In this document: one piece after another, positions 11,753-59,977 of the stretch | Numbering within the stretch: position 1 is the stretch's first letter | Layout: each line of letters begins with the position of its first letter | NCBI GenBank assembly: GCA_016718265.1 | Contig: JADKDZ010000007.1 | Span: 197,622-261,621 of the forward strand | DNA from: Uliginosibacterium sp. | GTDB taxonomy: Bacteria; Pseudomonadota; Gammaproteobacteria; Burkholderiales; Rhodocyclaceae | Reading direction: 5' to 3' | Length of the DNA: 64,000 bases | Notes under the pieces: generated by a model | What the model was told of the DNA's origin: nothing | The model's input: the letters and a program-made list of their open reading frames with translations, nothing else | Database searches by the model: none | Program-made: the position numbers and the translations under genes

Positions 11753-11759
11753 AGACGCG

Positions 11760-12383: not shown

Positions 12384-12927
12384 CGGCTCCGGACACTGCA
12401 GGAACGGGGGCTTGCTTGCCCAGCACGTAGCTCTTGGGCCTCGCGCGAATGTCGCCCTGAAACAGGATATCGGCCAGCTCATTCAAAGCGGCCTTATACA
12501 CGCCACGCTTGAACTCGATCACCGATTCAAGCGGGACCCAGAAATCCGTCCAGCGCCAGGCATCGAATTCAGGGTGCCCGCTCGCCCGCAGGCTGATATC
12601 GGTATCGCGCCCAATCAGACGCAGCAGATACCAGATCTGCTTCTGTCCGCGATAGGTACTACGCCATTCGCGCTTGACCCAATGCTTCGGCACGTCATAA
12701 CGCAACCATTCACGCGTGCGGGTAATCACCTGCACATGCTCCGGACGCAGACCGACTTCTTCATAGAGTTCCCGGAACATCGCCTGCTCGGGAGATTCCC
12801 CGTGCTTGATGCCGCCCTGCGGAAACTGCCAGGAATGTTCGCGTATGCGCTTGCCCCAAAACACCTCGTTGCGTGAATTCACGATGACGATGCCGACATT
12901 AGGGCGATAACCATCCCTGTCGAGCAT
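12373..12927 (-). CDS. rppH: RNA pyrophosphohydrolase (Nudix)
   Basis: Start at [14 protein letters not shown]. Nudix box [23 protein letters not shown]. Divergent from proS. Confidence 0.9.
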
Positions 12928-13073
12928 GAAAACCACCTGAATACCATTAAGTTGAAAGGATTCTTTCACAGTTCCGGACTTAAGGAAACATCCCCTGATC
13001 CAATCGGGACGTTCAAACCCTGGCTCAGGTACAATCGCGGGTTATCCCGGACTTTGATCACAGAATATCGACC

Positions 13074-14780: not shown

Positions 14781-14789
14781 GCCGTATTC

Positions 14790-15443: not shown

Positions 15444-15503
15444 CCCCTTTCCTCACTGCCACGCGCCTATCCCTGGCGATGTGACAGCTTACCGAGCCTT
15501 ACC

Positions 15504-17767: not shown

Positions 17768-17799
17768 AACGCGGCGCCCCGGTTCGCGCCTGGGCGCCC

Positions 17800-43740: not shown

Positions 43741-43987
43741 GCACGGGCGCGTCATCTCGCACAGTGACGCACCGGCCGCCTCAGTATCCGCCAGGTTTGC
43801 CGAAATACCCCTTGGAGAGCCGCATCCAGCCTGGCTCTCCAAGGGGTATCGGGCGGGCCCCTGCGCTCGCCAGGCCTCATAAGAATCCGGGCCACTGACT
43901 GCACCTTCTGGCAAGATACCGGCCTGGATCGACGCACAAGATGGCTCGGGATGCCCTAACCCGATGACCCCCACGAGAGGACACACC

Positions 43988-45025
43988 ATGCCAGCGCCAC
44001 GCTTTCACACGCTCGCCCTGCTGGGCGCACTGACGATCAGTGCCTTGACCACCACACCCGCGCAGGCCGGCAAAACCCTGGACGCCATCAAGCAGCGCGG
44101 CACCATCCAGTGCGGGGTCAGCACAGGCGTAGCGGGCTTCTCGCTGCCGGATAGCCAGGGCAAGTGGTCGGGCTTCGATGCGGATTTCTGCCGCGCACTG
44201 GCGGCCGCCGTGCTGGGCGACGCCAACAAGGTGAACTTCGTGCCGCTGAACTCGCAGCAGCGTTTCTCGGCCATCCAGTCGGGCGAGGTGGACCTGCTGG
44301 CGCGCAACACCACCTGGACGCTCAACCGTGACGCCTCGCTGGGCCTCTCCTTTACCGGCGTGACCTACTACGACGGCCAGGGCTTCCTGGTGCCGAAGAA
44401 GCTTAAAGTCACCAGTGCCAAGCAGCTCAAGAACGCCGAGATCTGCGTGCAGTCCGGCACCACCAACGAGAAAAACCTGGCGGATTACTTCCGCGCACAG
44501 AACGTGAAGGTCAAGCCGGTGGTCTTCGAAGGCTTCGAGGCCTCGTTCAAAGCTTTCTTCTCGGGCCGCTGCCAAGCGTATACCACCGATATCTCAGGCC
44601 TCGCCGGCGTCCGCAACAAAGAGACCAAGAACCCCGACGACTATGTGATCCTGCCCGAGGTGATCTCGAAAGAGCCGCTCGGCCCGGCCGTGCGCCGTGG
44701 CGATGACGAATGGTTCGCCATCGTGCGCTGGGTGGCGTTCGCCCTGATCGAGGCGGAGGAATACGGCATCACCCAAGCCAACGTCGAACGCATCAAGGCC
44801 GAAAGCCAAGACCCCAGCATCGGCCGCCTGCTGGGCTCAAGCGAAGACACGGGCAAGCTGCTCGGCCTGAATCGCGACTGGGCCGCCCGCGCCATCAAGG
44901 CCGTGGGTAACTACGGCGAGATCTTCGCCCGCAACGTCGGGCCGGATTCGGTGCTGAAATTGCCGCGCGGGCTCAACAATCTGTGGAACAAGGGCGGTAT
45001 TCTCTTTGCGCCCCCTGTCCGCTGA
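43988..45025 (+). CDS. aapJ: General L-amino-acid ABC transporter substrate-binding protein
   Basis: Signal peptide then GKTLDAIKQRGTIQCGVSTGVAGFS...; AapJ/BztA-type. Confidence 0.85.
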   Translation: MPAPRFHTLALLGALTISALTTTPAQAGKTLDAIKQRGTIQCGVSTGVAGFSLPDSQGKWSGFDADFCRALAAAVLGDANKVNFVPLNSQQRFSAIQSGEVDLLARNTTWTLNRDASLGLSFTGVTYYDGQGFLVPKKLKVTSAKQLKNAEICVQSGTTNEKNLADYFRAQNVKVKPVVFEGFEASFKAFFSGRCQAYTTDISGLAGVRNKETKNPDDYVILPEVISKEPLGPAVRRGDDEWFAIVRWVAFALIEAEEYGITQANVERIKAESQDPSIGRLLGSSEDTGKLLGLNRDWAARAIKAVGNYGEIFARNVGPDSVLKLPRGLNNLWNKGGILFAPPVR

Positions 45026-45091
45026 TGGGCACTTTGAATCCCTCACCCTGAGGACAACATCTGGGCCGGACCTCCGGCCCGTTTCATTGGC

Positions 45092-46087
45092 ATGCCCCAG
45101 ACAGCCGCCCACCGCTTGATCGTGATCGCCCTGCGCCGCTGGCTGCCCCAGATCGGCGTGCTGGCGCTGCTCGTCCTGTTGCTGGGCTGGCTGGGCCACA
45201 ACGTGCTGGAGAACATGCGCGAGCGCGGCATCCGCGCCGGTTTCGACTTCCTGTTCGATCCGGCCGGCTTCGAGATTGGCGAAAGCCTGCTCGACTACGA
45301 TGCCTCGCAGCCCTTGTGGCGGGCGTTTGCCACCGGCATCCTGAATACCCTGCGCGTGGCACTCCCGGCCATCGCGCTGGCCACCCTGCTTGGCAGCCTG
45401 ATAGGTCTGGGTCGCTTGAGCCGCTCGGCGCCGCTGCGCGGTTTGTGTGGGCTCTGTGTCGAAAGCCTGCGCAACATCCCGCTGCTGCTGCAATTGCTGA
45501 TGTGCTATTTCGCGCTGACCAGCCTGTTGCCGGATGTCAGCGAAGCGCTGCGCCCCCTGCCTGGCGTGATCCTCAGCAAGGGCGGCCTGTTCCTGCCCGC
45601 CTGGCACTGTGACGCCGGCTGTGGCTGGGACCTGCCGCAGCCCGCCGGATTCGGTGTTGAAGGCGGCTGGTCGCTCAGCCCGGAGTACCTGGCGGTGTTG
45701 ATCGCGCTCAGCGCCTACAGCGCGGTATTCATCGCCGAGATCGTACGCGGCGGCATCCAGTCGGTGTCGACGGGCCAGATCGATGCGGCACGGGCATTGG
45801 GCATGCGCCGCCTGCAGGTGTTGCGCCATGTCATCGCACCGCTCGCCCTGCGGGCCATCGTGCCCGCCCTCACCAACCAGTTCCTCAACCTGAGCAAGAA
45901 TTCCTCGCTCGCCGTCGCTGTTGGTTATCCAGAGCTGGTGTCGATCGCCAATACCTCGATCAATCAGAGTGGGCGCGCCTTCGAGTGCATTGTGGTCGTG
46001 ATGGCGGTGTACCTCAGTCTGTCATTGCTCACCGCGCTCATCATGAACCGCTACAACGCCCGCGTGGCACTGCGGGGCACGCGATGA
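45092..46087 (+). CDS. aapQ: Amino-acid ABC transporter permease (AapQ/BztB-type)
   Basis: 331-aa polytopic protein. EAA-like loop IQSVSTGQIDAARALGM. Confidence 0.85.
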   Translation: MPQTAAHRLIVIALRRWLPQIGVLALLVLLLGWLGHNVLENMRERGIRAGFDFLFDPAGFEIGESLLDYDASQPLWRAFATGILNTLRVALPAIALATLLGSLIGLGRLSRSAPLRGLCGLCVESLRNIPLLLQLLMCYFALTSLLPDVSEALRPLPGVILSKGGLFLPAWHCDAGCGWDLPQPAGFGVEGGWSLSPEYLAVLIALSAYSAVFIAEIVRGGIQSVSTGQIDAARALGMRRLQVLRHVIAPLALRAIVPALTNQFLNLSKNSSLAVAVGYPELVSIANTSINQSGRAFECIVVVMAVYLSLSLLTALIMNRYNARVALRGTR

Positions 46088-47109
46088 TGCGCTGGCCGGC
46101 CATAAGCACCCTTTTCTGGGCAGTGCTCGCAGGCGTCCTGCTGTGGCCGGTCTTCAACTGGGGGGTGCTGCACGCCATATGGGGCGCAGATCTTGAGGCA
46201 TGCCGGGCGGCACGCGGCGTGGGCGCCTGCTGGGGTGTGATTGCCGAGAAACACCGCCTGCTGCTGTTTGGCCGCTACCCCTTCGCCGAGCAATGGCGGG
46301 CGCTGCTGGCCACGCTGTTGATCCTCAGCCTGTTCGGCCTCGCCGCTTGGCGCCGCTATCAGCAGCCCCGCTTCATCGGCGTGGGGCTTGTCGGCATCCT
46401 GCTCGCCGTCGGCTTGATGCACGGCGGCGTGTTCGGCCTGGCCAGCGTGCCGACCAAGCTCTGGGGCGGGCTGCCGCTCACCTTGCTGGTCTCGTTGGGC
46501 GGCACCTTATTGGCCTTCCCGCTCGCGATCCTGCTGGCCGTCGGGCGGCGCTCCCGCCTGCCGCTGGTGCGCAGCCTGTGCGCGGCGTACATCGAGCTGA
46601 TCCGGGGCGTGCCGCTGATCAGCCTGTTGTTCATGGCCGCCTTCCTGTTCCCGCTGATGCTGCCGGCACACTGGCGCCCGGATATCCTGCCGCGCGTGAT
46701 TGTCACCATCGCCGCCTTCGCCGCCGCCTACCTGGCCGAGGTGATTCGTGGCGGCCTGCAGGCGGTGCCGCCCGGTCAGCTCGCCGCCGCCCAGGCCCTT
46801 GGCATGCGCACCTGGCAGGCGCTGGCCTTCGTCGTGCTGCCACAAGCGCTGCGCGCCGCCCTGCCCGCGCTCGTTAACAGCTTCGTCGGCATCTTCAAGG
46901 ACAGTTCGCTGATTTCCATCGTCAGCCTGCACGAGCTGACCGGCGCCCTGTCCCTCTCGCTCGGGGGCGACGCCGACTGGCGCAGCTTCTACCTCGAAGG
47001 CTATCTCTTCATCGCCTTCATCTACTGGATCTGCTGTTTCTCGCTGTCACGCGCCGCGCGGCGCCTGGAGCAGCGCCTGGGGTCAAGCCGATCCACCGCG
47101 CCTGCCTGA
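46084..47109 (+). CDS. aapM: Amino-acid ABC transporter permease (AapM/BztC-type)
   Basis: The start ATGATG overlaps the aapQ stop. Loop LQAVPPGQLAAAQALGM. No ATPase gene follows. Confidence 0.85.
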   Translation: MMRWPAISTLFWAVLAGVLLWPVFNWGVLHAIWGADLEACRAARGVGACWGVIAEKHRLLLFGRYPFAEQWRALLATLLILSLFGLAAWRRYQQPRFIGVGLVGILLAVGLMHGGVFGLASVPTKLWGGLPLTLLVSLGGTLLAFPLAILLAVGRRSRLPLVRSLCAAYIELIRGVPLISLLFMAAFLFPLMLPAHWRPDILPRVIVTIAAFAAAYLAEVIRGGLQAVPPGQLAAAQALGMRTWQALAFVVLPQALRAALPALVNSFVGIFKDSSLISIVSLHELTGALSLSLGGDADWRSFYLEGYLFIAFIYWICCFSLSRAARRLEQRLGSSRSTAPA

Positions 47110-47128
47110 GGCGAGGCATTCGGCATCT

Positions 47129-47778
47129 TCGGCGTATTCGCCGACGTATTGGCGGTGGATCGTGCTCAGCGCGTCGGCTGTCTGGCCAAAGGCGTCGGTG
47201 CGCTCGCCGAAGGCATCAAAGCTCGAGGATTTCCTGGATGCTTTGCGCAGGGTCGGTGACGAGGCGAGCGGCGCCTTGGCCTCCGGCGTGGTAAGACCGC
47301 CTGTATTCGTTAGCTCTTTATATCGAGCCATGAACTGCGCCCATTCCTTGTCCGGGGTGTGGAGGTAGCGGGTCTCAGCGTTGCCGGTCTTGTCGAGTGT
47401 AACTTCGGCGCAGGGCCGCGCAGCGTCGATGAGGTGCAGCGTCTCGACCGTCTTGCCGCCCATGGTGACGCGGGGTTTTGATGCGCTGGCCCTGGGCGTC
47501 GCGTTCGTACTCGGTCTTCTGGCTACCAGTGTCGACAAGGATCAGGCCGTTGCCGGCTGTCCCAGCGTAGCTGGTGCTGTTGCCGTCGGGGCTCTGCTTC
47601 TTGAGCAGATTGCCGTTGGCATCCCAGCTGTAGGTAGTGATCAGGCCATCGCTGTCTTCGCTGAGCAGGCGATCGTTGCTGTCGTACTGGTAGCGGGAGG
47701 TGAGGGTGCTGCCGCCTTGCGTGACCTGCTGGCTGAGGCGGTTGCCGACGGCGTCGTAGCGATATGTCTGCCAAGCCG
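47129..47778 (-). pseudogene. RHS/YD-repeat core fragment 1, truncated at both ends and internally disrupted
   Basis: Near-identical at the nucleotide level to 52953-53585. Reads ...GGKTVETLHLIDAARP...FDAFGERTDAFGQTADALSTIHRQYVGEYA and then stops being RHS at 47129, 20 nt from the aapM stop. An AT-rich patch of about 56 bp (47295-47350) replaces about 49 bp of core. Confidence 0.8.
47304..47349 (+). repeat. 46-nt AT-rich element, copy 1 (embedded in RHS fragment 1)
   Basis: TATTCGTTAGCTCTTTATATCGAGCCATGAACTGCGCCCATTCCTT. About 90% identical to 59978-60025 in the same orientation. Confidence 0.85.
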
Positions 47779-48045
47779 CCCGCAGCGGCGATCTTCACGG
47801 AGGCGTCGCTGTCAGGCAGCAGGCATCGGCATCACAGCGATGGATGGCTGAAGACTCTTGCTGCAGGCGGGTGCTGGCGTGGTTGGCTTGTTAAAGAGCG
47901 GGATGGGTTTAGTACAGCAGGCAAAACGTCAATTGAACCAAGGCCTCAAAACGACATTGACATCGCCTGCGGCGACCCGGATTACGCTGCGATGCAGCGA
48001 ATCCAGGCTACTCCCTTGCTACGGAGTACGCCGTACGCGGTGCTT
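47779..48045 (-). repeat. Conserved cassette leader, copy 1
   Basis: Shares blocks GCAGCGGCGA-CTTCA, CATCACAGCGATGG, TTAAAGAGCGGGAT, ACGACATTGACATCGCCTGCGGCGACCC, GATTACGCTGCGATGCAGC-AATCCAGGCTACTC and CTACGG...CCGTA with the other leader copies. Confidence 0.75.
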
Positions 48046-48099
48046 CAATTGACTTTGCGAACCTCTGCATTTCAAGCGCTTTGGCCTGTTGCTTGTCGG

Positions 48100-48712
48100 A
48101 CCACGGCCCCATCTATCAGTCCCCAAAAAACTCTTCTCTTGAAACCGAGAAATACAATTTCTTTCTGTTTCTTACTTCGAGTCTTTCGTCACTGTCAAGC
48201 CGAAAAATGCCTTAAGGGAAGAGAGTCCTGGGGCTAATACCGAATTCTCTCGTATTGAATGCTTCGATAGAGGCAACATCCATCGGATCGCAACTCATCT
48301 CTCTGAGATCGGCAAACTCGGATGGATCTCCCGGTGCAATCAGCACCGATCACCTTCAAAACCCAGAAACAAGGCGCGGATAAACGACGACGGCAAACGG
48401 TCCAGGCCGCATGTCAGCCAGCACATACTGGCGTCCTCAAGCGTAAAGACCACGGCGAACTGTGTGACCGCTACGCTGAACTCAGCAAAGCCGAATACAT
48501 CGAAATCGAGCAGACCGTCCCCCAGAACCTCTTCACCCGCTCTGCCAGCGGACAGTATCCTATCTGGGCGCGTCCACTCGGAAAGCGATCTATCTGGAAC
48601 CCTCTGCGACGAATATCTTTTCAATAACCCTTTCTGTGTCGCAAATCTCGGTCACAGCAAGGCAATGATCGATGGCGATTCGGATTGGGATATAAAAATT
48701 TCTATAAATCAT
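48100..48712 (-). pseudogene. Immunity-position gene ImmA, frameshifted copy
   Basis: The ATG at 48712 lies 2 nt after the toxin stop. MIYRNFYIPIRIAIDHCLAVTEICDTERVIEKIFVAEG then loses frame (GAGGGTTCC versus GAGGGCTTCC in the intact copy at 56214-56831). Homology resumes in ORF 48340-48624. Confidence 0.7.
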
Positions 48713-48713
48713 A

Positions 48714-50358
48714 TCAGGGCCAATAAATAATAGAGCCGTCACCGAGGATAGCGATTATTTCAGTTGGGGAGCGTCCATTTCTTTCGAGCCTAGCGATCTC
48801 GCTGTCAAGCAACTCACGCGTCAGGCCGCCGTAGTCGCCATCGATAATGAAACGATCTGGCTGTCCTTTCTTTAGCGATTCTCGAATGTTTTGGTACACG
48901 CCATTCTTGCCTTTCACGGTTTTGATGTCATACATGTGTCCATTGTAAGGGGGCGTCAGCTCTGCCCCCACCTTCTCCGCGCAGGTAAATCCTCGCCCCA
49001 GTCTTCTCTGCCAAATGCTCTGCAGCAGCGATTTCTTTAGCGGTCGCAGGCGTTTTCTTCGACCACCGAACCCATCCCAATCCCTTTTTTGATTGAATCA
49101 AACCGCGGGTGATCAGCTTGGCACCCCAAGGCGCTACGGATGCGATCACCCCCCAGCCCATTGAACTGCTGTAACTTGCACCGCCATCCAGTGCATTTGA
49201 TATCAAGTTGCTGCCAAAGTCGGCCTGAATGTTTGCCAATACACTCTGGATATTGGACGCGGCCCCCAGACCACCCAGCGTAAACAACCCACTCGGATCC
49301 CGCCCGCCAACCGGATCCCCATGCGCATACCCATACTTGTTCAACGACAAAGGCTGAGTCAGCCTCCCCGCAAACTCATCCATCGACACAAAGCGCCCAA
49401 GCTGCGGGTCGTAGTGGCGGGGGCGCAGGTTGTAGAGCCGGTGCGGTCGGCGTATTCGCCGACGTATTGGTGGTGGATCGCTCGGCGCGTCGGCGGACTG
49501 CCCGAAGGCGTCGCTGCGCTTGCCGAAGGCGTCAAAGCTAAGGATTTCCTGGATGCTTTGCGCGGGGTCGGTGACGAGGCGGGTGCTGCCTGCTGTCGGC
49601 GTGGTAGAGCCGGGTCTGGCTGCCATTTTGCTCGGCGATGAGGTCGCCGAGTCCGTCCGGGGTGTGAGGTAGCGGGTTTCGCTGCTGCCCGTTTTGTCGA
49701 GTACAACTTCGGCATAGGGGCGTGCCTCGTCGATGAGGTGCTGGGTTTCAACCGATTTTGCCGCCCATGGTGACACGGGTTTGATGCGCTGCCCCTGGGC
49801 GTCGCGTTCGTACTCGGTTTTCTGGCTGCCGGTATCGACGGATCAGGCGGTTGTGGCTGTCCCAGCCGTGGGTGGTGCTGTTGCCGTCGGGGCTCTGCTT
49901 GAGAAGATTGCCGTTGGCATCCCAGCTGTAGGTAGTGATCAGGCCATCGCTGTCTTCGCTGAGCAGGCGGTCGTTGCTGTCGTACTGGTAACGGGTGGTG
50001 AGGGTGCTGCCAGCTTGCGTCACCTGCTTGCTGAGGCGGTTGCCGACGGCGTCGTAGCTGTAGCGGGTGAGCCGGATGTCGCCAGCTTCGTCCACCTGTT
50101 CTTCCAGCAGTTTGCCCGCCTTGTCGTACTGGTAGGCGATCTGGCGCTGGCCGCTGGCGAGCTTTTCGGTGACGGCCTGCTTGCGGCCGTTGGCATCTCA
50201 GCGTGTAGTTGAATTGGGCAGAGACTGCCGTCGGCTTTCAGATGCTCGACTTCGGTGAGCTGGTTGGCGTCGTTGTAGCGGTAGTGGCTTTGTGCGCCGC
50301 TGGCGTGGGTGATGCCGGTGCGGTTGCCGATGGCGTCGACGCGATGGGTCTGATGAGC
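48714..50358 (-). pseudogene. RHS core fragment 2 fused to toxin C-terminal domain CT-A (multiple frameshifts)
   Basis: YD repeats (RVDAIGNRTGITHASGAQSHYRYNDANQLTEVEHL, YSYDAVGNRL, YSWDANGN). Core end RHYDPQLGRFVSMDEFAGRLTQPLSLNKYGYAHGDPVGGRDPSGL. Then CT-A: ...AAEHLAEKTGARIYLRGE...YNGHMYDIKTVKGKNGVYQNIRESLKKGQPDRFIIDG...ILGDGSIIYWP. Confidence 0.8.
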
Positions 50359-50585
50359 CGCTTGCAGCGGCGACCTTCATAGGGGTGTCGCTGTCAGCCA
50401 ATAGGGCATCAGCATCACAGCGATGGCAGGCTGAAGCCCCATGCTGCAGGCGGGTTCCGGCGTAGTTGTGTTTTTAAAGAGCGGGATGGGTTTGGCGCAC
50501 GGCAACTCAGTCCAAAGCTTCCAAACGACATTGACATCGCCTGCGGCGACCCTCGGATTACGCTGCGGTGCAGCTAATCCAGGCT
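50359..50585 (-). repeat. Conserved cassette leader, copy 2 (left part; continues at 51808-51845 after the IS110 insertion)
   Basis: Collinear with 55995-56204. Homology stops exactly at AATCCAGGCT (50576-50585) and resumes at CTACTCTCTTGCTACGG (51808 onward). Confidence 0.8.
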
Positions 50586-50841
50586 TGTATGTTCTGTCTG
50601 CGCCCTTATGAAGCAGCGGATAGGGGCGCCGAGGTGGAGGGACGATCCAGGCTATCTGCCGTGTCAGCGGACAGACTTCCGTAGAAATGTCCCCATTTCG
50701 TTTGCGTCAGCGTCGATTAGGAATGCAGCGCGTGGCAGCCCTGTCGTGATCGCCACGACGGCCAATAGAAGCAAGCACGCCAAAGCAAACGCCTCCTCAG
50801 CAAGTCCATTTTAGCCGCAGCACTGGCCCAGATCTGTACGC
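50586..50841 (+). ncRNA. Candidate bridge (guide) RNA region in the IS110 left end
   Basis: Non-coding left end upstream of the recombinase ORF, as in IS110-group elements. It contains ATCCAGGCT (50645-50653), identical to the 9 nt of target immediately left of the insertion including the CT core (50577-50585). RNA ends and fold were not determined. Confidence 0.35.
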
Positions 50842-51804
50842 ATGAATACGCAAGCCTTATCTATCGGTGTGGATGTCAGTCTCGCAGAATTGGTCATCGC
50901 CCACTTTGGTGACACGACGCCACTCATCAAAATCCCCAACAATGCAGTGCAAATCAAGCGCTGGCTCAAAGCCTTACCGCCCGCCTGCACGATCGGTATG
51001 GAAGCGACGGGCGCCTATCATCGTCTGCTGGCCGACCTGGCTTTTGCTGCGGGCCATACCGTCTTTGTACTCAATCCACGTGACGTTGCGCTCTACCTCA
51101 AGAGCTTGCGCACTCGTGGAAAGACCGATGTGCTTGATGCACGCGGCATTGCCCGTTACACGCACAACGAGACAGACAAGTGCCATGCGTACGTGCCACT
51201 CACGGCACAGCAACAGACGATCACGACGCTGATTCAGCGCCGTCATCAAGTCGTTAAAAGCCGCACCAGCTTGCGCATGAGTTTTGCCGACACAACGCTT
51301 TGCACCAAAGCGTGCTCCAAACTGATGTGCGCCTTTGACGCCTTGCTTGCCGATATCGACAACCAGCTCAAAGCGCTGATCGCAGCCGATGAAGCCTTGA
51401 ATGCACGTTGCAAGCACTTGCGCTCCATTCAAGGTGTCGGTCCTTTGATCAGCGCCGCATTGGCCATGCGTATGAGTCGAGTACATTATGCCAACAGCGA
51501 TGCACTGGTGGCTGCCATCGGGCTCGACCCCAGGCCACGTGAGTCAGGTCAATACACTGGCACACGTCACCTCTCCAAGCGCGGAAACCCAGAAGAGCGG
51601 CGATTGCTCTATCTGGCCGCAGTCAGTGCTTGTCGCAACCCAACCTGGAAAGCCATTCAGACCACACTGCTCGGCAAGGGACTGCCTTCCACTGCGGTCT
51701 ATTGCATCATCGCCCGCAAGATCTGCGCATTGCATTTGCTATCTGGAATACAGGGGTGCCGTACGACCCGAACCTCGTCGGAAAATGCTTGCTCTCCAAC
51801 ATAG
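50842..51804 (+). CDS. IS110-family (DEDD) transposase; C-terminal approximately 25 aa possibly frameshifted
   Basis: 320 aa. IGVDVSLAEL (DEDD N-domain), GMEATGAYH, C-terminal HhH region IQGVGPLISAALA. A family-like tail LRIAFAIWNTGVPYDPNLVGK is read in another frame from about 51725. Confidence 0.85.
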   Translation: MNTQALSIGVDVSLAELVIAHFGDTTPLIKIPNNAVQIKRWLKALPPACTIGMEATGAYHRLLADLAFAAGHTVFVLNPRDVALYLKSLRTRGKTDVLDARGIARYTHNETDKCHAYVPLTAQQQTITTLIQRRHQVVKSRTSLRMSFADTTLCTKACSKLMCAFDALLADIDNQLKALIAADEALNARCKHLRSIQGVGPLISAALAMRMSRVHYANSDALVAAIGLDPRPRESGQYTGTRHLSKRGNPEERRLLYLAAVSACRNPTWKAIQTTLLGKGLPSTAVYCIIARKICALHLLSGIQGCRTTRTSSENACSPT

Positions 51805-51929
51805 AATCTACTCTCTTGCTACGGCGTACGCTGTACGCGGTGGCGCGAAGATAAATCGCCGAATCGGCTTGACTTCGGCATATAGAATTGCGCACGCATC
51901 GCCGCCGCAATACGGATAATCAGAGTCAC

Positions 51930-52256
51930 TCACGATAAACCGTAAGCTATTCCTGTCGCCGCAAGAGCATTGTTTGCTACAAATATATTAAGTTCGCTAC
52001 CTAAAGGTACTATTTCAGTTATTAAGCATCCAAAATAGTTCTCCATTTCTTTGACAGCACTAATACAAATAACGGAGTCGTACTGCCGGCCTACTCTAAT
52101 TATATCTCCTTCAATTTTATCGAAACCGCAAGAGGCCATTACTCCCCAGGTAGCATTAGCAAAGGTCGGTAATGACTGACAATCTCTTCTGGCAAAGCGC
52201 CATCTAAGGATGGATCCAAAATTTTAGCTAGACTTTATAAGAGCTCTAGAATACAT
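51930..52256 (-). pseudogene. Immunity-position gene ImmC (possibly SUKH/SMI1-like), apparent frameshifts
   Basis: Low-GC segment 25 nt downstream of the CT-C stop. Pieces read MYSRALIKS / AKILDPSLDGALPEEIVSHYRPLLMLPG / GVMASCGFDKIEGDIIRVGRQYDSVICISAVKEMENYFG... The LPEE...Y...GG pattern resembles SUKH immunity proteins (weak, from memory). Confidence 0.4.
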
Positions 52257-52280
52257 GTGCTAATGAAATGATCGATTTAT

Positions 52281-53605
52281 TTAAAAGTTCAAGATCGAAA
52301 ACGTCAAGACGCCATTCTTAAATATCCAAGGATCGATAGATCTTGAGAAGTTTGCGACCGACACGGCAGAATCGTTGATGGTGACTTTAATAATCGCAAC
52401 ATACGCGGGGTTGGTGTTTGCATAAGCGATAGCTTCTTCCATAGTGAAAGCAAACTGCTTCATACCTGTCGGTCTTGGCCCCCAAGAGAATATTTTACCC
52501 GCTATGATCGACTCATACTCAGCCACTTCCACTGCTCGAAATAAGGTTACAGTTTTGCCACCTCGAGCTATCAAAGAAAGCGAGCCAAGATTCTTTTCTA
52601 TCAAACTTATAGAGCCAGCAGAAGCACCTACAGCAAGTTTATTAATGATAAGAGAGATAAGCAGCTCTTTCGCCGCACCGCTATAGTCACCCTTAAGCAG
52701 ACTAGATGTCACGCAATACGACGTAATAGCAACGTTTGCCAAAATTGCAGATATATTGACGCCCGCCATTACTCCCCAAGCGTCATCCGCCCACTCGGAT
52801 CCTGCCCGCCAATCGGATCCCCGTGCGCATACCCATACTTGTTCAACGACAAAGGCTGAGTCAGCCTCCCCGCAAACTCATCCATCGACACAAAGCGCCC
52901 AAGCTGCGGGTCGTAGTGGCGGGCGCGCAGGTTGTAGAGGCCGGTGTGGTCGGCGTATTCGCCGACGTATTGGCGGTGGATCGTGCTCAGCGCGTCGGCT
53001 GTCTGGCCAAAGGCGTCGGTGCGCTTGCCGAAGGCATCAAAGCTGAGGATTTCCTGGATGCTTTGCGCAGGGTCGGTGACGAGGCGGGTGCTGCCTTGGC
53101 CGTCGGCGTGGTAGAGCCGGGTCTGGCTGCCGCTTTGCTCGGCGATGAGCTCGCCGAGCCCGTCCGGGGTGTGGAGGTAGCGGGTCTCGCTGCTGCCGGT
53201 TTTGTCGAGTACGACTTCGGCATAAGGGCGTGCCTCGTCGATGAGGTGCAAGGTCTCGACCGTCTTGCCACCCACGGTGACACGGGTCTTGACGCGCTGA
53301 CCCTGGGCGTCGCGTTCGTACTCGGTTGTCTGGCTGCCAGTGTCGACGCGGATCAGGCGGTTGTGGCTGTCCCAGCCGTAGGTGGTGCTGTTGCCGTCGG
53401 GGGGCTTCTTGAGAAGATTGCCGTTGGCATCCCAGCTGTAGGTGGTGATCAGGCCATCGCTGTCTTCGCTGAGCAGGCGGTCATTGCTGTCGTACTGGCA
53501 GCGGGTGGTGAGGGTGCTGCCCGCTTGCGTGACCTGCCTGCTGAGGGCGGTTGCCGACGGCGTCATGGCTGTAGCGGGTGAGCCGCCCGCAGAGGCGATC
53601 TTCAC
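52281..53605 (-). pseudogene. RHS core fragment 3 fused to toxin C-terminal domain CT-C
   Basis: ORF 52769-53605 carries the RHS core end (…RHYDPQLGRFVSMDEFAGRLTQPLSLNKYGYAHGDPIGGQDPSGRMTLGE*). ORF 52281-52769 (MAGVNISAILANV...TVTLFRAVEVAEYESIIAGKIFSWGP...) is its continuation. One extra G in the run at 52774-52777 gives MTLGGVMAGVNISAILANV, parallel to FTLGGLGAASNIQSVLANI (CT-A) and MSLGGMMSGLNGSVSLALL (CT-B). Confidence 0.75.
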
Positions 53606-53935
53606 AGGGCATCGCTGTCAGCCAGTAGGCATCACCATTACATCGGTGGCAGGTTTTACTCAGAAGTCAGTATTTAGAAGACACATTTTGTGCAGACAGC
53701 ACTTGTTTACTGGCGGATAACAATTCTCACTGTCCGCTAAGTTACTGACTTCTGAGTAAGACTCTTGTTGCTAGCGGGGTGCGGCGTAGTTGGATTGTTA
53801 AAGAGCGGGATTGGTTTAGCGCACGGCAACTTGGCCCATGGCTTCAAAACGACATTGGAATTGCTTGATGCAATCCGAATTACGCTGCGATGCAGATAGT
53901 CTGGCTACTCTCTTGATGCAGAGTATCACGTACGT
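53586..53935 (-). repeat. Conserved cassette leader, copy 3 (carries a MITE-like insertion)
   Basis: Same blocks as the other leaders but more diverged (…AGTCTGGCTACTCTCTTGATGCAGAGTATCACGTACG…), interrupted at 53656-53759. Confidence 0.7.
53656..53759. mobile_element. 104-bp MITE-like element with perfect 17-bp terminal inverted repeats
   Basis: TTACTCAGAAGTCAGTA (53656-53672) and TACTGACTTCTGAGTAA (53743-53759). Absent from the three other leader copies at the equivalent point (GGCTGAAG|ACTCTTG). Confidence 0.65.
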
Positions 53936-53943
53936 AGGCTCTC

Positions 53944-54388
53944 TTAACCACGCTGTAGGCTATCGAGAAATGGAAAGCCCTTTTCCATCAGTTTTGTCAT
54001 AACAAAATCGATTGCCTCCGCCACAGAATCGGTACTAACAGGCAACCAATCAAATTCCCTGTCGCAAAGAGCATGAATCCGTACGGACCTCTTGAAGTTC
54101 ATGAGCCGTTAAAAGTCCTCCTTTGTTACCAACCAGGGGCGCTGCATAAGCTCCGGAAAGCGCTTAAGGCGAGACCATGCCAATTCAAGTGTCACTTTGT
54201 CTTCGCCCCTCTTGAGTTCGGGTGTCAAGATCAAAAAATAGCAGCAGATCTCCGTGCTCTTTTGCCATACAGTTTCTGCAGGCCAGACGTACATCGACTT
54301 AATCTTCGTTTGTACAAATTCTGGAGCGGCCTGCGTGATTTTCGTAATCCAATTCCTTAACGATTTTCAGCCGTAACTTTTTATCCAT
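53944..54388 (-). pseudogene. Immunity-position gene ImmB, apparent frameshifts
   Basis: The ATG at 54388 lies 4 nt after the CT-B stop. Pieces read MDKKLRLKIVKELDYENH / PEFVQTKIKSMYVWPAETVWQKSTEICCYFLILTPELKRGEDKVTLELAWSRLKRFPELMQRPWLVTKEDF / NFKRSVRIHALCDREFDWLPVSTDSVAEAIDFVMTKLMEKGFPFLDSLQRG. Low GC. Confidence 0.45.
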
Positions 54389-54392
54389 CTCA

Positions 54393-55994
54393 CTAAATCC
54401 CCATCAAGAAAATCCGTAGGTACTGCCCCAGCTCAACAAGTCCCTGGACATGCTTGATTGCGCCTGCCGTTTCCCCAAGCTCAGCAAGCACTAAGGCCAT
54501 CTGCGCTTCGCTCGGTGCTGCCCAGGTAAAACAGCACAACTTCTGCGCCCTTGACTTCAGCCACCGCCGTCGCTGTGCGCATTTGTCCAACCAAGCGTGT
54601 CAAAGCGCCGCCTGCCTTCCTGGGGAGTCCGTATTTCACCTCCAGATAAGACAATCGATTCCCCCGCTGTAATAAGGAAGTCGATCACCCTCCGTCCGCC
54701 AGGCCCAAACAGTTCGACGCCGCCTTCTACCACACCGCGCGATCCTACGCTACGAACAAGCACGGTCTCAACAGCTTTCTCCACAGCCACACCAAGATTT
54801 CGTAATGCTAAGCCACCTGCGGCACGCGAAAGAGCGAATCCCGCCTGAACCTGCAGCAATGCTAGGCTGACGCTTCCATTGAGGCCTGACATCATCCCGC
54901 CAAGCGACATCTGACCACTTGGATCAATGCTGTTTACAGGATCCCCATTCGCATACCCATACTTGTTCAACGACAAAGGCTGAGTCAGCCTCCCCGCAAA
55001 CTCATCCATCGACACAAAGCGCCCAAGCTGCGGGTCGTAGTGGCGGGCGCGCAGGTTGTAGAGGCCGGTGTGGTCGGCGTATTCGCCGACGTATTGGTGG
55101 TGGATCGCGCTCAGCGCGTCGGCGGACTGCCCGAAGGCGTCGCTGCGCTTGCCGAAGGCGTCAAAGCTAAGGATTTCCTGGATGCTTTGCGCGGGGTCGG
55201 TGACGAGGCGGGTGCTGCCTTGGCCGTCGGCGTGGTAGAGCCGGGTCTGGCTGCCATTTTTGCTCGGCGATGAGGTCGCCGAGTCCGTCCGGGGTGGAGG
55301 TAGCGGGTTTCGCTGCTGCCCGTTTTGTCGAGTACAACTTCGGCATAGGGGCGTGCCTCGTCGATGAGGTGCTGGGTTTCAACCGTTTTGCCGCCCGTGA
55401 CACGGGTTTTGATGCGCTGGCCCTGGGCGTCGCGTTCGTACTCGGTTTTCTGGCTGCCGGTATCGACGCGGATCAGGCGGTTGTGGCTGTCCCAGCCGTA
55501 GGTGGTGCTGTTGCCGTCGGGGCTCTGCTTCTTGAGAAAGATTGCCGTTGGCATCCCAGCTGTAGGTAGTGATCAGGCCATCGCTGTCTTCGCTGAGCAG
55601 GCGGTCGTTGCTGTCGTACTGGTAACGGGTAGTGAGGGTGCTGCCAGCTTGCGTCACCTGCTTGCTGAGGCGGTTGCCGACGGCGTCGTAGCTATAGCGG
55701 GTGAGCCGGATGTCGCCAGCTTCGTCCACCTGTTCTTCTAGCAGTTTGCCCGCCTTGTCGTACTGGTAGGCGATCTGGCGCTGGCCGCTGGCGAGCTGTT
55801 CTGTCACGGCCTGCTTGCGACCGTTGGCATCCAGCGTGTAGCTGAATTGGGCAAGCAGACTGCCGTCGGCTTTCAGATGCTCGACTTCGGTGAGCTGGTT
55901 GGCGTCGTTGTAGCGGTAGTGGCTTTGTGCGCCGCTGGCGTGGGTGATGCCGGTGCGGTTGCCGATGGCGTCGACGCGATGGGTTCTGATGAGC
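54393..55994 (-). pseudogene. RHS core fragment 4 fused to toxin C-terminal domain CT-B (frameshifts)
   Basis: The longest core fragment (LKADGSLLAQFSYTLDANGRKQAVTEQLASGQRQIAYQYDKAGKLLEEQVDEAGDIRLTRYSYDAVGNRLSKQVTQAGS...). Core end ...NKYGYANGDPVNSIDPSGQMSLGG, then CT-B ...VRSVGSRGVVEGGVELFGPGGRRVIDFLITAGESIV / YLEVKYGLPRKAGGALTRLVGQMRTATAVAEVKGAEVVLFYLGS... The D...EVK spacing resembles PD-(D/E)xK nucleases. Confidence 0.75.
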
Positions 55995-56240
55995 GCTTGC
56001 AGCGGCGACCTTCTCAGGGGGTGTCGCGGTCAGCCAAGAGGCAGCAGCATCACAGCGATGGAAGGCTGAGGCGCCTTGCTGCTGGCGGGCTTGTTAAAGA
56101 GCGGGATCGTTTTAGCGCACGGCACTTCGGTACAAAACTTTAAAAACTACTTTGGCATCTTTTTCGGCGACCCAGATTACGCTGCGATGCAGCTAATCCA
56201 GGCTACTCTCTTCTTACGGAGGACGCCGTATGCGGTATCC
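55995..56240 (-). repeat. Conserved cassette leader, copy 4
   Basis: Best-preserved uninterrupted copy. Contains ATCCAGGCT|ACTCTC (56196-56210) and the palindrome TACGGAGGACGCCGTA overlapping the ImmA stop. Confidence 0.75.
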
Positions 56241-56831
56241 ATCAGCCCCAAAAAACTCTTCTCTGGATACAGAGAAATAGAAGTCTTTCTTTTGCCCGAG
56301 CCTTTCATCACTGCTCAAGCCGAAATACGCCTTAAGGGAAGAGAGTCCTTGAGGGCTAATGCCATATTCTCGAAAATTAAACGCTTCGATAGAAGCAACA
56401 TCCATCGGTTCGCAACTCATCTCTTTGATGTCGGCGATCACAGATGGCTCTTCTGGTGCGATCAGTACTCGATCACCTTCAAACCCCAGAAACAATACGC
56501 GGATAAACGATAGCAAACGGTCGAGACTGCATGTGAGCGCACACATGTTGGCGTCCTCAAGCTCAAAGACCACGGCGAATTGTGTGACCGCTACGCTGAA
56601 CTCAGCAAAGCCGAATACATCGAAATCGAGCAGACCGTCTCCCAGAACCTCCTCTACCCGCTCTGCCAGCGACAGTGTCCTATCTGGGCGCGTCCACTCG
56701 GAAAAGCGATCTATCTGGAAGCCCTCTGCGACGAATATCTTTTCAATAACCCTTTCTGTGTCGCAAATCTCGGCCACAGAAAGGCGATGATCGATCGCGA
56801 TTTCAATTGGAATGCGGAAATTTTTATACAT
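56214..56831 (-). CDS. Immunity-position protein ImmA, intact copy (orphan)
   Basis: 205 aa from the ATG at 56831, 4 nt after the toxin-tail stop; the same relative position is used by the 48712 copy. The track ORF extends to a GTG at 56864. Acidic protein with no family recognised by eye. Low GC. Confidence 0.6.
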   Translation of the reverse strand: MYKNFRIPIEIAIDHRLSVAEICDTERVIEKIFVAEGFQIDRFSEWTRPDRTLSLAERVEEVLGDGLLDFDVFGFAEFSVAVTQFAVVFELEDANMCALTCSLDRLLSFIRVLFLGFEGDRVLIAPEEPSVIADIKEMSCEPMDVASIEAFNFREYGISPQGLSSLKAYFGLSSDERLGQKKDFYFSVSREEFFGADGYRIRRPP

Positions 56832-56835
56832 CGTA

Positions 56836-57044
56836 TTAAGGCCAGTAAACAATCGAGCCATCACCCAGGATAGCGACTATTTCAGTTGGCGAATCACCAT
56901 TTCTTTCAAGCCTAGCGATCTCGCTGTCAAGCAACTCACGAGTCAGGCCGCCAGGCCTGCCATCGATAATAAAGCGATCCGCTTGTCCTTTCTTTAGCGA
57001 TTCTCGAATGTTTTGGTACACGCCATTCTTGCCTTTCACGGTTT
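56836..57044 (-). pseudogene. 3' remnant of toxin domain CT-A (last about 67 codons)
   Basis: VKGKNGVYQNIRESLKKGQADRFIIDGRPGGLTRELLDSEIARLERNGDSPTEIVAILGDGSIVYWP. Nucleotide homology to 48714-48915 breaks at about 57044. Confidence 0.7.
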
Positions 57045-57663
57045 GCTCTCGGAGAACTGCAAATCAAGCCCAGTTCGACTGATCTCCTCGGTAACTAAAC
57101 CTACCCTGCTGTCTTCATATACTTGAGCTGCCGTTTTCAGGAATAGGCTCAGGCGTTCAATCCGTACAGCGGCTATAACGGCACTATTCTCCAAGACAAG
57201 CACAAGGGCGAGGGCAAATCGGAGCAGATGGGTGTAAGGCATAAATATGAAGTTGCGGAAACCGGATTGAACAAAATATGTGGCGCGAACTGAAGCGGCG
57301 ACTGTACTCGACACATCACCGAAGGAAGAGCCTGGAGACTAGCCGGGCGAGCGCTTCCCAGCCAAAAAACTCGCAATTGTATCTTTTCGTGAATTCGAAC
57401 CCCGCACCTCCCGACGAACGTTAAGTTTCATCGAGAGGAAAGAAGATCGTCTGGCGGCCTTGAAACTGTCAGCTGTTCGGCAGTGACTAAAATGGCTCAA
57501 GCAGACCTCTGCCATGGGCGCGCTCAAGCGCCCGCCTGAAGCGTGTTGAACGAAGCCGCTCCGCGGAGGATTCGCGTGTTGCTGCGGGCCGAAATATCCT
57601 GCACGTCCATCCCCCTCGTGTGTGAGGGGGTGATTGTGCAATATTTCGCGAGGACCTTCCATC

Positions 57664-58608
57664 ATGCAAAGCGACTTCCCTGAGCCATTTGCCCAGCAGT
57701 ACCAGAAGCATCTCAAACATCTTCGCCTGCAGGGGCTGCAACCCAAGACCATTGACGCGTATGCACGTGCGATTCGTTGCCTGGGCGCGCACTTCTCGTT
57801 TCGGATTGATGACTTGTCCGAGGCCCAACTGCTGGACTATTTCAGCGCACGTCTGGCCTCACATTCGTGGAGTGCGGTCAAACTCGATCTGTACGGCTTG
57901 AAGTTCTACACCGAGCACGTCTTGCGCAAACCTTGGGTCATGCCCCGGCTGATCAAGCCGCCGAAGTGCGTGCGCCTGCCGGACATCGTGACGGTCGAGG
58001 AAGTACAGCGGATCGTGGCGGCGACACGGGTGCTGAGCTACCGCGTGTTCTTCTTCACCTCTACAGCCTGGGGCTGCGTCTGGGGGAGGGGCTGCGCCTT
58101 GAGGTGGGGGACCTTGATGCAGTGCGTGCCCGCGTGCATATCCGGGACGCCAAGGGCAACCGGGATCGCCTGGTGCCACTGCCCACGGCGACGCTCGATC
58201 TGTTGCGCAGTTTCTGGCAAACCCATCGCAATCCGGTGTTGTTGTTCCCCAACCGTCACGGCGGTTTGTCGGGTGCGCACACGGCGGCAACACCACTTGA
58301 TCGCGGAGGCGTGCAGATCAGCTTGCGCAAGTGGTGGCCGCCTGCGGCCTAAAAAGATCTCGCCCCACAGCCTGCGTCACAGCTATGCCACGCACTTGAT
58401 CGAAGCGGGTGTCGATCTGATCGAAGTGCAGAAGATCCTCGGCCACCACAGCATCCTCACCACGGCGCGCTACACCCACCTGACCGATCAGACCAAGCAC
58501 CACGCCATCGACCGCATCAACAGCTTGATGGATGGTTTTACGGTGCGCTGGGGACGGTGCAGGAGCGCTCGCAATGATCCGTCTGGCCTCTGTCATCGAA
58601 ACCTTTGA
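57664..58608 (+). pseudogene. Tyrosine recombinase (phage-integrase family), three frameshifts
   Basis: N-terminal SAM-like domain ([23 protein letters not shown]). The catalytic region is readable only by switching frames ([20 protein letters not shown]...[14 protein letters not shown]...; ...[42 protein letters not shown]). Switches at CC 58058-58059, G 58331 and A5 58351-58355. Confidence 0.8.
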
Positions 58609-59699
58609 AGCCGACTTTCTGGCCCGCTACGGGGACGCATCCGTCGCGAACACTTGCAGGCACTTTCTGCGATCAAGCAGTGCCGCACCCAGGCCAGCCC
58701 GAAGATGCTGAGCCGCTGCACGGACACAGGCTGTGCGCACCAGAAACTCGTCCCGCATTCCTGTGGCCATCGTCACTGCCCGCACTGTCAGCATCATGAG
58801 GAGCCAGCAATGGCTTGAGCGTCAGCTCAAGCGCCAACTGCCCGCCGAGTACTTTCTGCTGACCTTTACCGTACCGGCCCAGTTCAGAGCACTGACCGCT
58901 GCAGCGCCAGCGCTGATCTACGATCTGCTCCTCACGTGTAGCTGGGAGACGGTACGAACCTTTGCCCGCAACGACAAGCAGCTACGCGGTGAGAGCGGCG
59001 CCATTGCCGTGCTGCACACGCATACGCGCCGACTCGACTATCACCCGCATGCATCTGGTAATGCCCGCTGGCGCTATTGATCAGCGCACTCGGCAATGGC
59101 GCACCAAGCCCAAGCGGAAGAAGGCCGCTGGCGCTTACCTGTTCAATCACAAGGCGCTCGCCAAAGTGTTTCGGGCCAAGCTCTTGGCAGCCCTCGAAGC
59201 CGCTGGCTTGCACTTGCCCCCGGCGTATCCCGCGGACTGGGTGGTCGACTGCAAATCGGTGGGCAATGGCCAATCGGCGCTGGTCTATCTGGGGCGCTAT
59301 CTCTATCGGGGGGTGATCCGCGAGCAGGACATTGTCGTCTGTGCCGATGGCAAGGTCACTTTCCGCTATCGCGATGCCCAAAGCGGCAAGATGATGCTGC
59401 GCACGGTGAGCGGGCCGGAGTTTCTGTGGCTTGTCTTGCAGCACGTCTTGCCCAAGGGCTTTCGACGAGCGCGCAATTTCGGCTTTCTGCATCCGAACTG
59501 CAAACACTTGATCGCCTTGCTGCATCTGTTGCTCAAATTCATCCCGACGCTGGCGAGTGACTGCGTCAAGCCCCGTCCTGCGGTGCGGTGCCCGTGTTGT
59601 GGGGCGGCGATGAAGATCGTCAAGACACGTATCCCGGCATCGGGGCCACCACGAACACCGCCGCCCGTGCACACCGCGAGGGCAACAAGCGCCCGGTAA
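58574..59699 (+). pseudogene. IS91-family HUH (Y2) rolling-circle transposase, at least 3 frameshifts
   Basis: N-terminal zinc-binding region (CGHRHCPHCQHHE) in one frame, HUH region VLHTHTRRLDYHPH in another, Y2 region YLGRYLYRGVI and the C-terminal CPCCG zinc ribbon in a third. One switch (HPH|HLVMPAG) is not a homopolymer event. Confidence 0.8.
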
Positions 59700-59977
59700 A
59701 ACACTGCGCATCCTCACAACACACTCGGCATTCAGCACTTCCCCAGGCTGAGCATGGCGTACGTCTGAAAACAGGCTAAAACCGGCAAGCCGAGGCCCAA
59801 AACCCGGCTTTGCCGGCACGTGCGGCCCATGCAAAACATCCGCCCGCCACACGCTTCATGGCGAAGGCATTCTGGCGGCCATTTCCAAAAGAGATATTTT
59901 CTGGGAGCCAGAAAACGGCTCAGGGACCGGGCTTGTTCAACAAACGGATCAGATCGTGGCTGCGCACGATCTATCCT

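Follow-up and report, generated by a model that had tools for sequence, protein, structure and literature searches.

The stretch of Uliginosibacterium sp. DNA analysed here, called the window below, is 64,000 nucleotides long (assembly GCA_016718265.1, contig JADKDZ010000007.1, positions 197,622 to 261,621). Between an aapM-like amino-acid ABC (ATP-binding cassette) permease gene and a cysB-like regulator gene it carries an island built of rhs core fragments, most of them followed by a toxin tip (C-terminal domain, CT) and a candidate immunity gene (Imm). Four core copies, c1 to c4, lie on the minus strand as direct repeats. Their number and orientation, proposed in a first-pass annotation made from the letters of the sequence, were borne out by self-BLAST of 47.0-57.5 kb and by a separate repeat finder; its description of the copies as near-identical was overstated, as identities range from 85 to 93% with many indels. 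Copies c2 (49310-50585) and c4 (54936-56204) are 93.2% identical over 1294 nt, c2 and c3 92.5% over 797 nt, and c3 and c4 91.1% over 838 nt. Copy c1 (47129-47843) is 85-86% identical to each of the three others, and E-values were 0 to 1e-180 throughout. All features are listed in Table 1.

As the first-pass annotation had anticipated, the copies are recognised by Rhs profiles. TIGR03696 (Rhs_assc_core, cut-off 32.5 bits) scored 65.9 bits on c3 and 46.8 bits on c2, and both RHS_repeat (PF05593) and YD_repeat (TIGR01643) match the c2, c3 and c4 fragments. The short open reading frame (ORF) of c4 reached 22.1 bits, under the cut-off, because it holds only the last 24 core residues; the motif is whole in P0076, the orthologue of c4 described below. 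The core end LNKYGYA...DPSG is found at 49344-49288 (c2), 52846-52790 (c3) and 54970-54914 (c4). These three copies do run past the core terminus and then diverge, with a spacer of four residues (GDP-VGGR-DPSG) and not the five first counted. Copy c1 is truncated, ending at QYVGEYA (47131), and for this reason lacks the core motif; it has neither tip nor immunity gene. The three tails behind the core end, CT-A', CT-C and CT-B, are mutually unrelated, and the fall in G+C content noticed at the outset is real: 0.39-0.55 in the tip and immunity parts versus 0.62-0.65 in the cores and flanks.

The core is rare. When the c3 core was scanned against a genome contig collection the best match had 49% identity, with no close relative, and a scan of metagenome contigs with the intact 357-aa core gave 39% at best and no more array copies, so that nothing above 49% identity was found in these two large collections. 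Exact-sequence look-ups of ImmA (with two start codons), of the binding-protein gene, of P0001 and of most array ORFs found none of them on record. Within c1, a 60-nt patch at 47290-47350, reading ...DKEWAQFMARYKELTNTGG..., is alignable and differs at about 40% of positions from the other copies and from three related contigs (L032-L034, see below); a faulty consensus or a tract of gene conversion could account for it.

Small ORFs were expected in the immunity position behind the tips, and they are there. The CT-A stop (56836) is followed after 4 nt by the ImmA ATG (56831) and the CT-A' stop (48714) after 1 nt by the ImmA' ATG (48712). The 4-nt gap between the true CT-B stop (54393) and the ImmB ATG (54388) becomes visible only past two frameshifts, using the sister-strain contig L031 as guide. 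For CT-C the 25-nt spacing first reported did not hold. It was measured from an apparent stop at 52281, before the ImmC ATG at 52256, and comparison with the homologues P0082 and P0083 puts the real end of CT-C (...SLAHVF*) at 52246, overlapping the ImmC ATG. The core frame does not continue into CT-C across the DPSG junction, and a second frameshift lies near the end of CT-C; in P0082, ...DPSGLMTL stands upstream of the homologous domain. The fifth remnant was rightly read as the last 67 codons of CT-A (57044-56836, PF18451) plus ImmA (56831-56214). A 1-nt deletion at 56249 lengthens the C-terminus of ImmA by 9 codons, and ImmA' DNA is 86% identical to the ImmA region by self-BLAST.

Only the CT-A tips fall in a described family. 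PF18451 (CdiA_C, gathering cut-off 26.6 bits) scored 37.9 bits on the intact CT-A of P0002, a protein encoded on another metagenome contig (L030), 29.9 bits on the frameshifted CT-A' piece and 23.4 bits on the 67-aa CT-A tail. A review table lists PF18451 as a PD-(D/E)xK tRNase (PMC9990079). We therefore assign CT-A to the CdiA_C family, as a putative tRNase by that table. CT-B carries an IDF...LEVKYG motif that resembles those of PD-(D/E)xK nucleases. Pfam, NCBIfam and PDB sequence searches with CT-B, CT-C, ImmA, ImmB and ImmC returned no significant match, and an AlphaFold2 model of CT-C, built on an alignment of three sequences, was unusable (mean predicted local distance difference test, pLDDT, of 36).

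Every core fragment is preceded on its 5' side by a conserved leader of 230-330 nt, neither coding nor core, which starts at most about 20 nt past the stop codon of the preceding immunity ORF. Its hairpin, GGATTAGCTGCATCGCAGCGTAATCC, occurs in the window only within the array, and the leader as a genome-wide repetitive extragenic palindromic element was rejected for this window, the hairpin being confined to the array. The leader as a structured RNA was also rejected (fold z = -1.36, no compensatory pairs among the four copies). An Rfam search of 46.5-60.5 kb at E<=1 gave no match, and a promoter and terminator scan gave nothing above shuffled expectation. The c3 leader contains an insertion of about 100 nt (~53600-53700; ~125-230 in L030) with long terminal inverted repeats ACTCAGAAGTCAGTAAC ... 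CTGACTTCTGAGT, which looks like a miniature inverted-repeat transposable element (MITE).

The cores themselves come in two forms, long in c2 and c4 (starting ...DAIGNRTG) and short in c1 and c3. The short form lacks about 290 nt that the long form has between two DA(I/V)GNR repeats, and all four copies therefore share one leader/core junction by descent. This shared junction indicates that the array probably grew by tandem duplication of one founder unit, and that tips and immunity genes were replaced after the founder duplication, more probably than gathered by independent displacement events. The conservation of the leaders likewise suggests growth by tandem duplication and homologous recombination. 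None of the fragments begins before residue ~2693 of P0076, and the N-terminal delivery region is missing from all. The ATG or GTG of the leader is out of frame with the core in c1, c2 and L030 and mutated in c4; c2 and L030 also have a TGA in the core frame 13 codons upstream of the core. In c3 a 278-aa ORF runs from the leader GTG, open only through an additional C at 53547 that L030 does not have. The architecture proposed at first, that of orphan rhs-CT/immunity modules, was thus recovered: core end, unrelated low-G+C tip, tightly linked small ORF and no in-frame start.

The window contains no full-length rhs, VgrG or PAAR gene. By cluster look-ups it belongs to an uncultured Rhodocyclales bacterium, with metagenome-assembled genomes of Uliginosibacterium sp. 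and Candidatus Dactylopiibacterium as nearest relatives that bear a name. The parent gene was found in a sister strain: the 90% cluster of the c3 ORF includes P0076, a 3187-aa "RHS repeat-associated protein" encoded on L031, a metagenome contig that covers the same locus and is ~98.6% identical. There the rhs gene lies between the cysB-like gene and sequence matching c4. L031 positions 5013-9036 correspond to window positions 64000-59977 (gltX, pflA, a hydrolase gene and the cysB-like gene; 98.6% identity, 56 substitutions, 0 indels), and 9265-9763 to window 57543-57046 at 98.6%. The rhs ORF (10001-19564) starts 237 nt past position 9763, and its last 1.6 kb together with ImmB match window 55973-53951 (c4, CT-B, ImmB) at 98.9%. 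The claim that the array is detached from any expressed full-length rhs is hence correct for the window, and the same locus in L031 keeps such a gene.

The point at which the gene was lost can be read directly. At 57046/57045 the sequence ...CCGAGAG (L031 9763) is joined to CAAACCGTGAAAGG, inside CT-A, so that the former rhs upstream region is now fused to the CT-A tail. Because rhs upstream sequence abuts CT-A at this junction, the "remnant" is the distal scar of an rhs deletion, one end-point of which would lie 237 nt before the rhs ORF and the other in the CT-A tip, 67 codons short of its end. On this comparison the detachment of the array is explained by a deletion in place and not by translocation; this strain would have deleted rhs where it stood, which is why the array has no parent gene. 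The deletion would measure at least ~9.6 kb, and more if an orphan CT-A cassette such as that of L030 had lain between.

P0076 is not a typical type VI secretion system (T6SS) Rhs. Profile searches found eight He_PIG and five Big_9 domains, Ig_SIBA-E_2nd and other immunoglobulin (Ig)-like domains, DUF6531, 17 RHS repeats, the core motif and CT-B, and no match to PAAR. A signal-peptide-like segment, ...RALFGALIVVALGISDAHA|VFENG, is present at about residues 250-275. In L031 the 10 upstream genes have housekeeping roles, as do the window's large ORFs. Given the lack of PAAR and these neighbours, the parent Rhs is most likely not of the T6SS type, and with a parent of this kind one would not expect VgrG or PAAR genes in the window. 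No Gram-negative export route is known for an Rhs of such giant size, rich in Ig-like domains and bearing a signal-peptide-like segment. In residues 1-275 of P0076 (L031 10001-10800), the first ~240 residues look like a separate module. It ends in a hydrophobic, basic, sorting-signal-like tail, VPAISSVGLALTLLLMLAVASLKGRRK, that runs in frame into the signal-peptide-like segment, for which reason the true Rhs start may lie near residue 240.

Other contigs bear on the order of the array and on its distribution. L030 comes from the metagenome that also yielded L031 and is 97.3% identical to window 57044-55586. It carries a c3-type leader and core, an intact CT-A (P0002, 352 aa), ImmA, a leader and the start of the c4 core, and independently confirms the order core, CT-A, ImmA, leader, c4 core. 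L032-L034, from three metagenomes, reproduce the junction of c1 with the end of the aapM permease gene and have the in-frame 112-aa P0075; two of the three bear names (k127/k141) that we take to denote short-read assemblies. In these three contigs unrelated sequence (positions 1-185), holding the inverted repeat GTGTCCATAAATTCCGTTTGTGGACAC, cuts c1 at ~47410, and all three end there. The cutting sequence is probably the end of another multi-copy insertion sequence (IS), representing a further decay state of the locus. Finally, two sister metagenome-assembled genomes (MAGs), L097 and L098, have empty sites: their flanks are 98.4-98.9% identical over 12 kb, and the cysB-like gene follows 388 nt after aapM with no island. 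Since these two genomes are without the whole island, it is strain-variable, and it appears in at least four states among the assemblies compared. A direct repeat of 16-20 bp, CGCCTGCCTGAGGCGA(A)GGCA, flanks the island, its right copy lying at L031 ~9250-9265, and L097 and L098 have a single variant copy, GTTCCGCCTGAGGCGAAAGGCA, at ~12040-12065. This suggests that the island may have inserted by a site-specific or microhomology-mediated route; no island-borne integrase was seen in L031.

Table 1. Features of the rhs island and its borders in the window (numbering of the window; L030 and L031 are the metagenome contigs described in the text)
Feature	Position	Strand	Evidence or remark
Left copy of island-bounding direct repeat, CGCCTGCCTGAGGCGA	47099..47114	+	right copy in L031
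c1, distal rhs-core fragment, ~216 codons	47129..47778	-	85-86% to c2, c3, c4
c1 leader, between ImmA' and c1 core	47779..48041	-	hairpin GGATTCGCTGCATCGCAGCGTAATCC at 47979-48004
ImmA', diverged ImmA allele, frameshift-split as sequenced	48116..48712	-	three-frame translation
CT-A', CdiA_C (PF18451)-type toxin tip, at least 1 frameshift	48714..49287	-	PF18451 E=6.6e-7
c2, long-form rhs-core fragment, ~343 codons	49288..50358	-	~10 frame-breaking indels vs intact core
c2 leader	50359..50585	-	5' part cut by IS110-family element
IS110-family element, approximate ends	50586..51925	+	transposase 50842-51804, PF01548 and PF02371
ImmC candidate, ~108 codons, over three frames as sequenced	51930..52256	-	ATG overlaps true CT-C stop
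CT-C, toxin tip without known family	52246..52789	-	only two homologues in 5.8 billion proteins
c3, short-form rhs-core fragment, ~265 codons	52790..53585	-	TIGR03696 65.9, PF05593 56.9 bits
c3 leader	53586..53925	-	holds ~100-nt MITE-like insertion shared with L030
ImmB, 148 aa, interrupted at three indels as sequenced	53944..54388	-	intact in L031 19569-20009
CT-B, toxin tip, two frameshifts as sequenced	54393..54913	-	intact as C-terminus of P0076
c4, long-form rhs-core fragment	54914..55994	-	98.9% to 3' core of full-length L031 rhs
c4 leader	55995..56236	-	adjacency to ImmA and c4 confirmed by L030
ImmA, 205 codons, in frame	56214..56831	-	DNA ~97% to L030 ImmA region
CT-A tail, last 67 codons, distal deletion end-point	56836..57045 (coding 57044-56836)	-	PF18451
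Former rhs upstream region, with 92-aa ORF	57046..57543	-	98.6% to L031 9265-9763
Tyrosine recombinase and IS91-family (Y2_Tnp) transposase, 2.4-kb element	57544..59976	+	PF00589, PF13495, PF04986

Taken together, we read the array as spare rhs toxin-tip/immunity cassettes left behind by a deleted main rhs gene, and give this reading a probability of about 0.8. The original island would have consisted of a giant Rhs toxin gene followed by a tandem array of silent cassettes, each composed of a leader of 230-330 nt, 0.65-1.07 kb from the 3' end of the rhs core, a toxin tip and an immunity gene; the deletion would then have removed the main rhs, leaving the cassettes alone. By analogy with the orphan rhs systems that have been studied, the toxin fragments are presumably not made, as they have no in-frame start codon and no delivery domain. 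The direct repeats of leader plus core, 0.8-1.3 kb long, could serve as homology arms for unequal homologous recombination, which would add, delete or swap cassettes and, when it involved the main rhs, would fuse a stored tip to it. The difference between L031, where the main core leads into CT-B, and the window and L030, where CT-B belongs with a leader and the c4 core, looks like such a tip-switch event. The immunity genes may still protect against sibling strains deploying the matching toxins. ImmA now lies directly behind the former rhs 5' region, and with the main gene gone immunity is the sole plausible function left to the array in this strain.

Several points weigh against this reading. 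No promoter is predicted in the leader or in the upstream region. The middle of the array (c3, CT-C, ImmC, the IS110-family element, c2, CT-A', ImmA' and c1) has no independent confirmation, and the CT-C and c2 ORFs occur on the window's own contig only. L030 and L031 come from one metagenome and both end in repeats, so the path from main core to CT-B in L031 is possibly chimeric, and this makes the native tip of the main rhs uncertain. As L030 has its CT-A behind a leader and a short core, the deletion may also have reached beyond the main rhs. Lastly, the frameshifts of the cassettes could be real decay that followed the loss of the main gene.

These frameshifts are abundant. The cassettes contain more than 25 frame-breaking indels of 1-2 nt, and ~16 kb of flanking DNA almost none. 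By three-frame translation, the frame changes about 10 times within the c2 core and 3 times within that of c4; other shifts lie exactly at the c3 core/CT-C junction, near the end of CT-C, in CT-A' (at least one) and in CT-B (two), and ImmA', ImmB and ImmC are broken into several ORFs as sequenced. Compared with intact L031, c4 shows 9 substitutions and 10 indel events over 2 kb, and the c2 core 18 and 12 over 1 kb, versus 56 and 0 over 4 kb for the flank. Against L097, the flank has 188 substitutions and 3 indel events over 12 kb. The contrast in indel to substitution ratio between array and flank is significant (Fisher p 1e-7 to 1e-9). Most of the indels sit in homopolymers or dinucleotide repeats, and the orphan core of L030 differs from the main core by 62 substitutions with no frame-breaking indel.

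Such an array might be a genuine graveyard of pseudogenes, its cassettes decayed by real indels of 1-2 nt and serving neither as toxin reservoir nor as immunity. No cassette is free of frame breaks, three immunity genes are split, the main gene is lost, IS110-family and IS91-family elements have invaded the locus, and other strains show IS-truncated or empty versions of it. Natural decay should, however, produce many more substitutions than indels, and here the indel to substitution ratio is about 1:1, at a substitution divergence of 0.45-1.7%, compared with about 1:60 in the flanks. Frameshifts also affect the adjoining recombinase and transposase genes, a sign that sequence quality is low across the region, and the orthologous cassettes in L030 and L031 are frame-intact. 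We consider real decay unlikely, though far from negligible, and favour consensus errors made by the assembly in a strain-variable, repetitive stretch as the probable source of the frameshifts. The pattern would fit residual errors of a long-read metagenome assembly. As the indels are probably consensus errors, pseudogenisation is unproven. A more general doubt would be that copy number, order or the deletion junction itself derive from mis-joined strains, or from expansion or collapse of the 1-kb repeats. Several haplotypes do exist at the locus (empty, full, IS-cut and main-deleted), the consensus is of low quality in this stretch, and in L030 CT-A follows a c3-type leader and core, an arrangement not seen in the window. 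Yet independent assemblies repeat ImmA-leader-c4, the run from c4 through CT-B and ImmB to the start of the c3 leader, and c1-aapM. The copies diverge by 7-15% and carry different tips, and hence are not one locus counted twice. Moreover, the deletion junction joins non-homologous, largely single-copy sequences, which assemblers do not invent. An artefact of this kind is improbable.

Two further explanations give the leader a role of its own, and both are very hard to sustain. The fragments could be independently expressed short Rhs genes starting at the end of the leader, which terminates in a conserved (A/G)TG AAG (A/G)TC GCC; the 278-aa c3 ORF and the size of most database relatives of the core (350-490 aa) go in this direction. 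This leader start, however, is out of frame or mutated in every copy but c3, where the frame hangs on one C within a C-run, and many of the database relatives are on short contigs. Some 300 residues of YD repeats, besides, would not form an Rhs shell, judging from established Rhs structure. We regard expressed short genes as highly improbable. Even slighter is the chance of a recombinase-driven cassette array, integron-like or Bacteroidales-like, with the leader as recombination site. A tyrosine recombinase gene (57634-58608) does adjoin the array in divergent orientation, and the conserved hairpin leader stands before every cassette and nowhere else in the window; but the recombinase belongs to a 2.4-kb IS91-family element absent from L031, which has rhs and cassette sequence, and the leader lacks covariation and does not fold significantly (z = -1.4). 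The shared 0.65-1.07 kb of core is ample for ordinary homologous recombination, and the short form of c1 and c3 is explained by deletion between the DA(I/V)GNR repeats.

The deletion reading might be carried a step further, with leader and core acting as a portable pair of homology arms that would make the locus a self-contained cassette shufflon, and with the window representing a toxin-loss, immunity-retention "cheater" haplotype. One deletion would have dropped a costly 9.5-kb toxin gene while ImmA, ImmB and ImmC were kept. We hold this extension to be rather unlikely. If true, it would mean that four island states (empty, armed, IS-cut and immunity-only) stand side by side in the species, and that toxin/immunity dynamics would be directly observable in wastewater communities.

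Counterparts of these spare cassettes are known. Orphan rhs-CT/rhsI modules lie downstream of full-length rhs in Dickeya dadantii (rhsC), Yersinia pseudotuberculosis and Salmonella Typhimurium (STM0292) (PMC3150448, PMC3967940), and an orphan rhs tip can be activated by recombination with the main rhs (PMC3967940). Like these modules, those of the window combine a core fragment that reaches the Rhs core motif with an unrelated tip and a neighbouring immunity ORF; the toxin fragment lacks a translation start, and the core homology (here 0.65-1.07 kb at 85-99%) permits recombinational tip switching. At the level of sequence, the window has every hallmark of orphan modules save the upstream full-length rhs, which is present at the L031 locus. 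The window differs in that the main rhs is absent through deletion in place, in that there are four cassettes and a remnant, each cassette with the shared 230-330-nt non-core leader, and in a parent that is signal-peptide-like and Ig-like and not linked to PAAR or VgrG. Arrays of orphan immunity genes that arose by sequential effector displacement are known in Vibrio cholerae T6SS clusters (PMC5361080), and up to 11 orphan cdiA-CT/cdiI modules occur in E. coli EC869 (PMC3150448). These too are strain-variable tandem arrays of toxin 3' ends and immunity genes, read as immunity repertoire and toxin reservoir. They differ in their delivery (T6SS effectors, CdiA), and the active effector gene is normally still found upstream.

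The parent protein itself resembles the Sec-dependent YD-repeat toxins of the WapA type (Bacillus subtilis) and other non-T6SS Rhs classes among polymorphic toxin systems (PMC4436062). P0076 shares with such toxins a signal-peptide-like segment, an extended region of extracellular type, a YD-repeat shell, the core motif, a polymorphic tip and the lack of PAAR. Unlike WapA it belongs to a Gram-negative, betaproteobacterial host, and it has 3187 aa with 8 He_PIG and 5 Big_9 matches. Bacteroidales recombinase-associated orphan immunity islands and integron arrays combine cassettes, a conserved intergenic repeat and a tyrosine recombinase. The present array is similar in its cassettes separated by a conserved repeat and in the adjoining tyrosine recombinase gene. 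The recombinase lies here, however, in a secondary IS91-family insertion missing from the sister strain, the cassettes have a long homologous core, and an attC-like structure is unsupported.

The array is thus real, if ordinary; the puzzle of its missing parent gene finds an ordinary solution, its apparent decay is probably technical, and the current understanding of orphan toxin cassettes is unchanged. The locus offers a clear natural case of rhs evolution within one species: at one chromosomal site the island is seen inserted, with its tip switched, without its main gene and altogether missing. It also represents an Rhs lineage of non-T6SS type, rich in Ig domains, with a core that has hardly any close relatives in public data; CT-B, CT-C and the three immunity proteins are outside described families. 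Clusters of frameshifts in strain-variable repeats of a MAG should not be taken as pseudogenisation without a check of the reads.

Two mobile elements are present at the locus. The IS110-family element lies between the ImmC stop and the c2-leader hairpin, and replaces the first ~35 nt of the leader, whose alignment breaks at ~50585. IS110-family elements often target repeated hairpins, and the leader hairpin may have been the target. The element at 57544-59976, with two frameshifts in its recombinase and a split transposase, replaces 228 nt of native intergenic DNA and is absent from L031, L097 and L098. It is a neighbour of the rhs system and, as far as these comparisons go, not part of it. 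Mobilisation of the island by one-ended transposition of this IS91-family element was rejected because L031 has the island without the element. A plasmid search with the recombinase/IS91-family element gave only a weak match of 126 nt. The element opens with bases, CGCCCGCCTGAAGCG, that are similar to the direct repeat at the island borders, and ends with the hairpin GATCGTGGCTGCGCACGATC.

Next to the array, the amino-acid ABC transporter operon at 43964-47109 has a binding-protein gene and two permease genes with no adjacent ATPase gene, a state found both in the window and in the empty-site sister genomes. Elsewhere in the window, and unrelated to the array, two adjacent paralogous GH94 genes (cellobiose/chitobiose phosphorylase-type, 842 and 826 aa) occupy positions 5851-10895.

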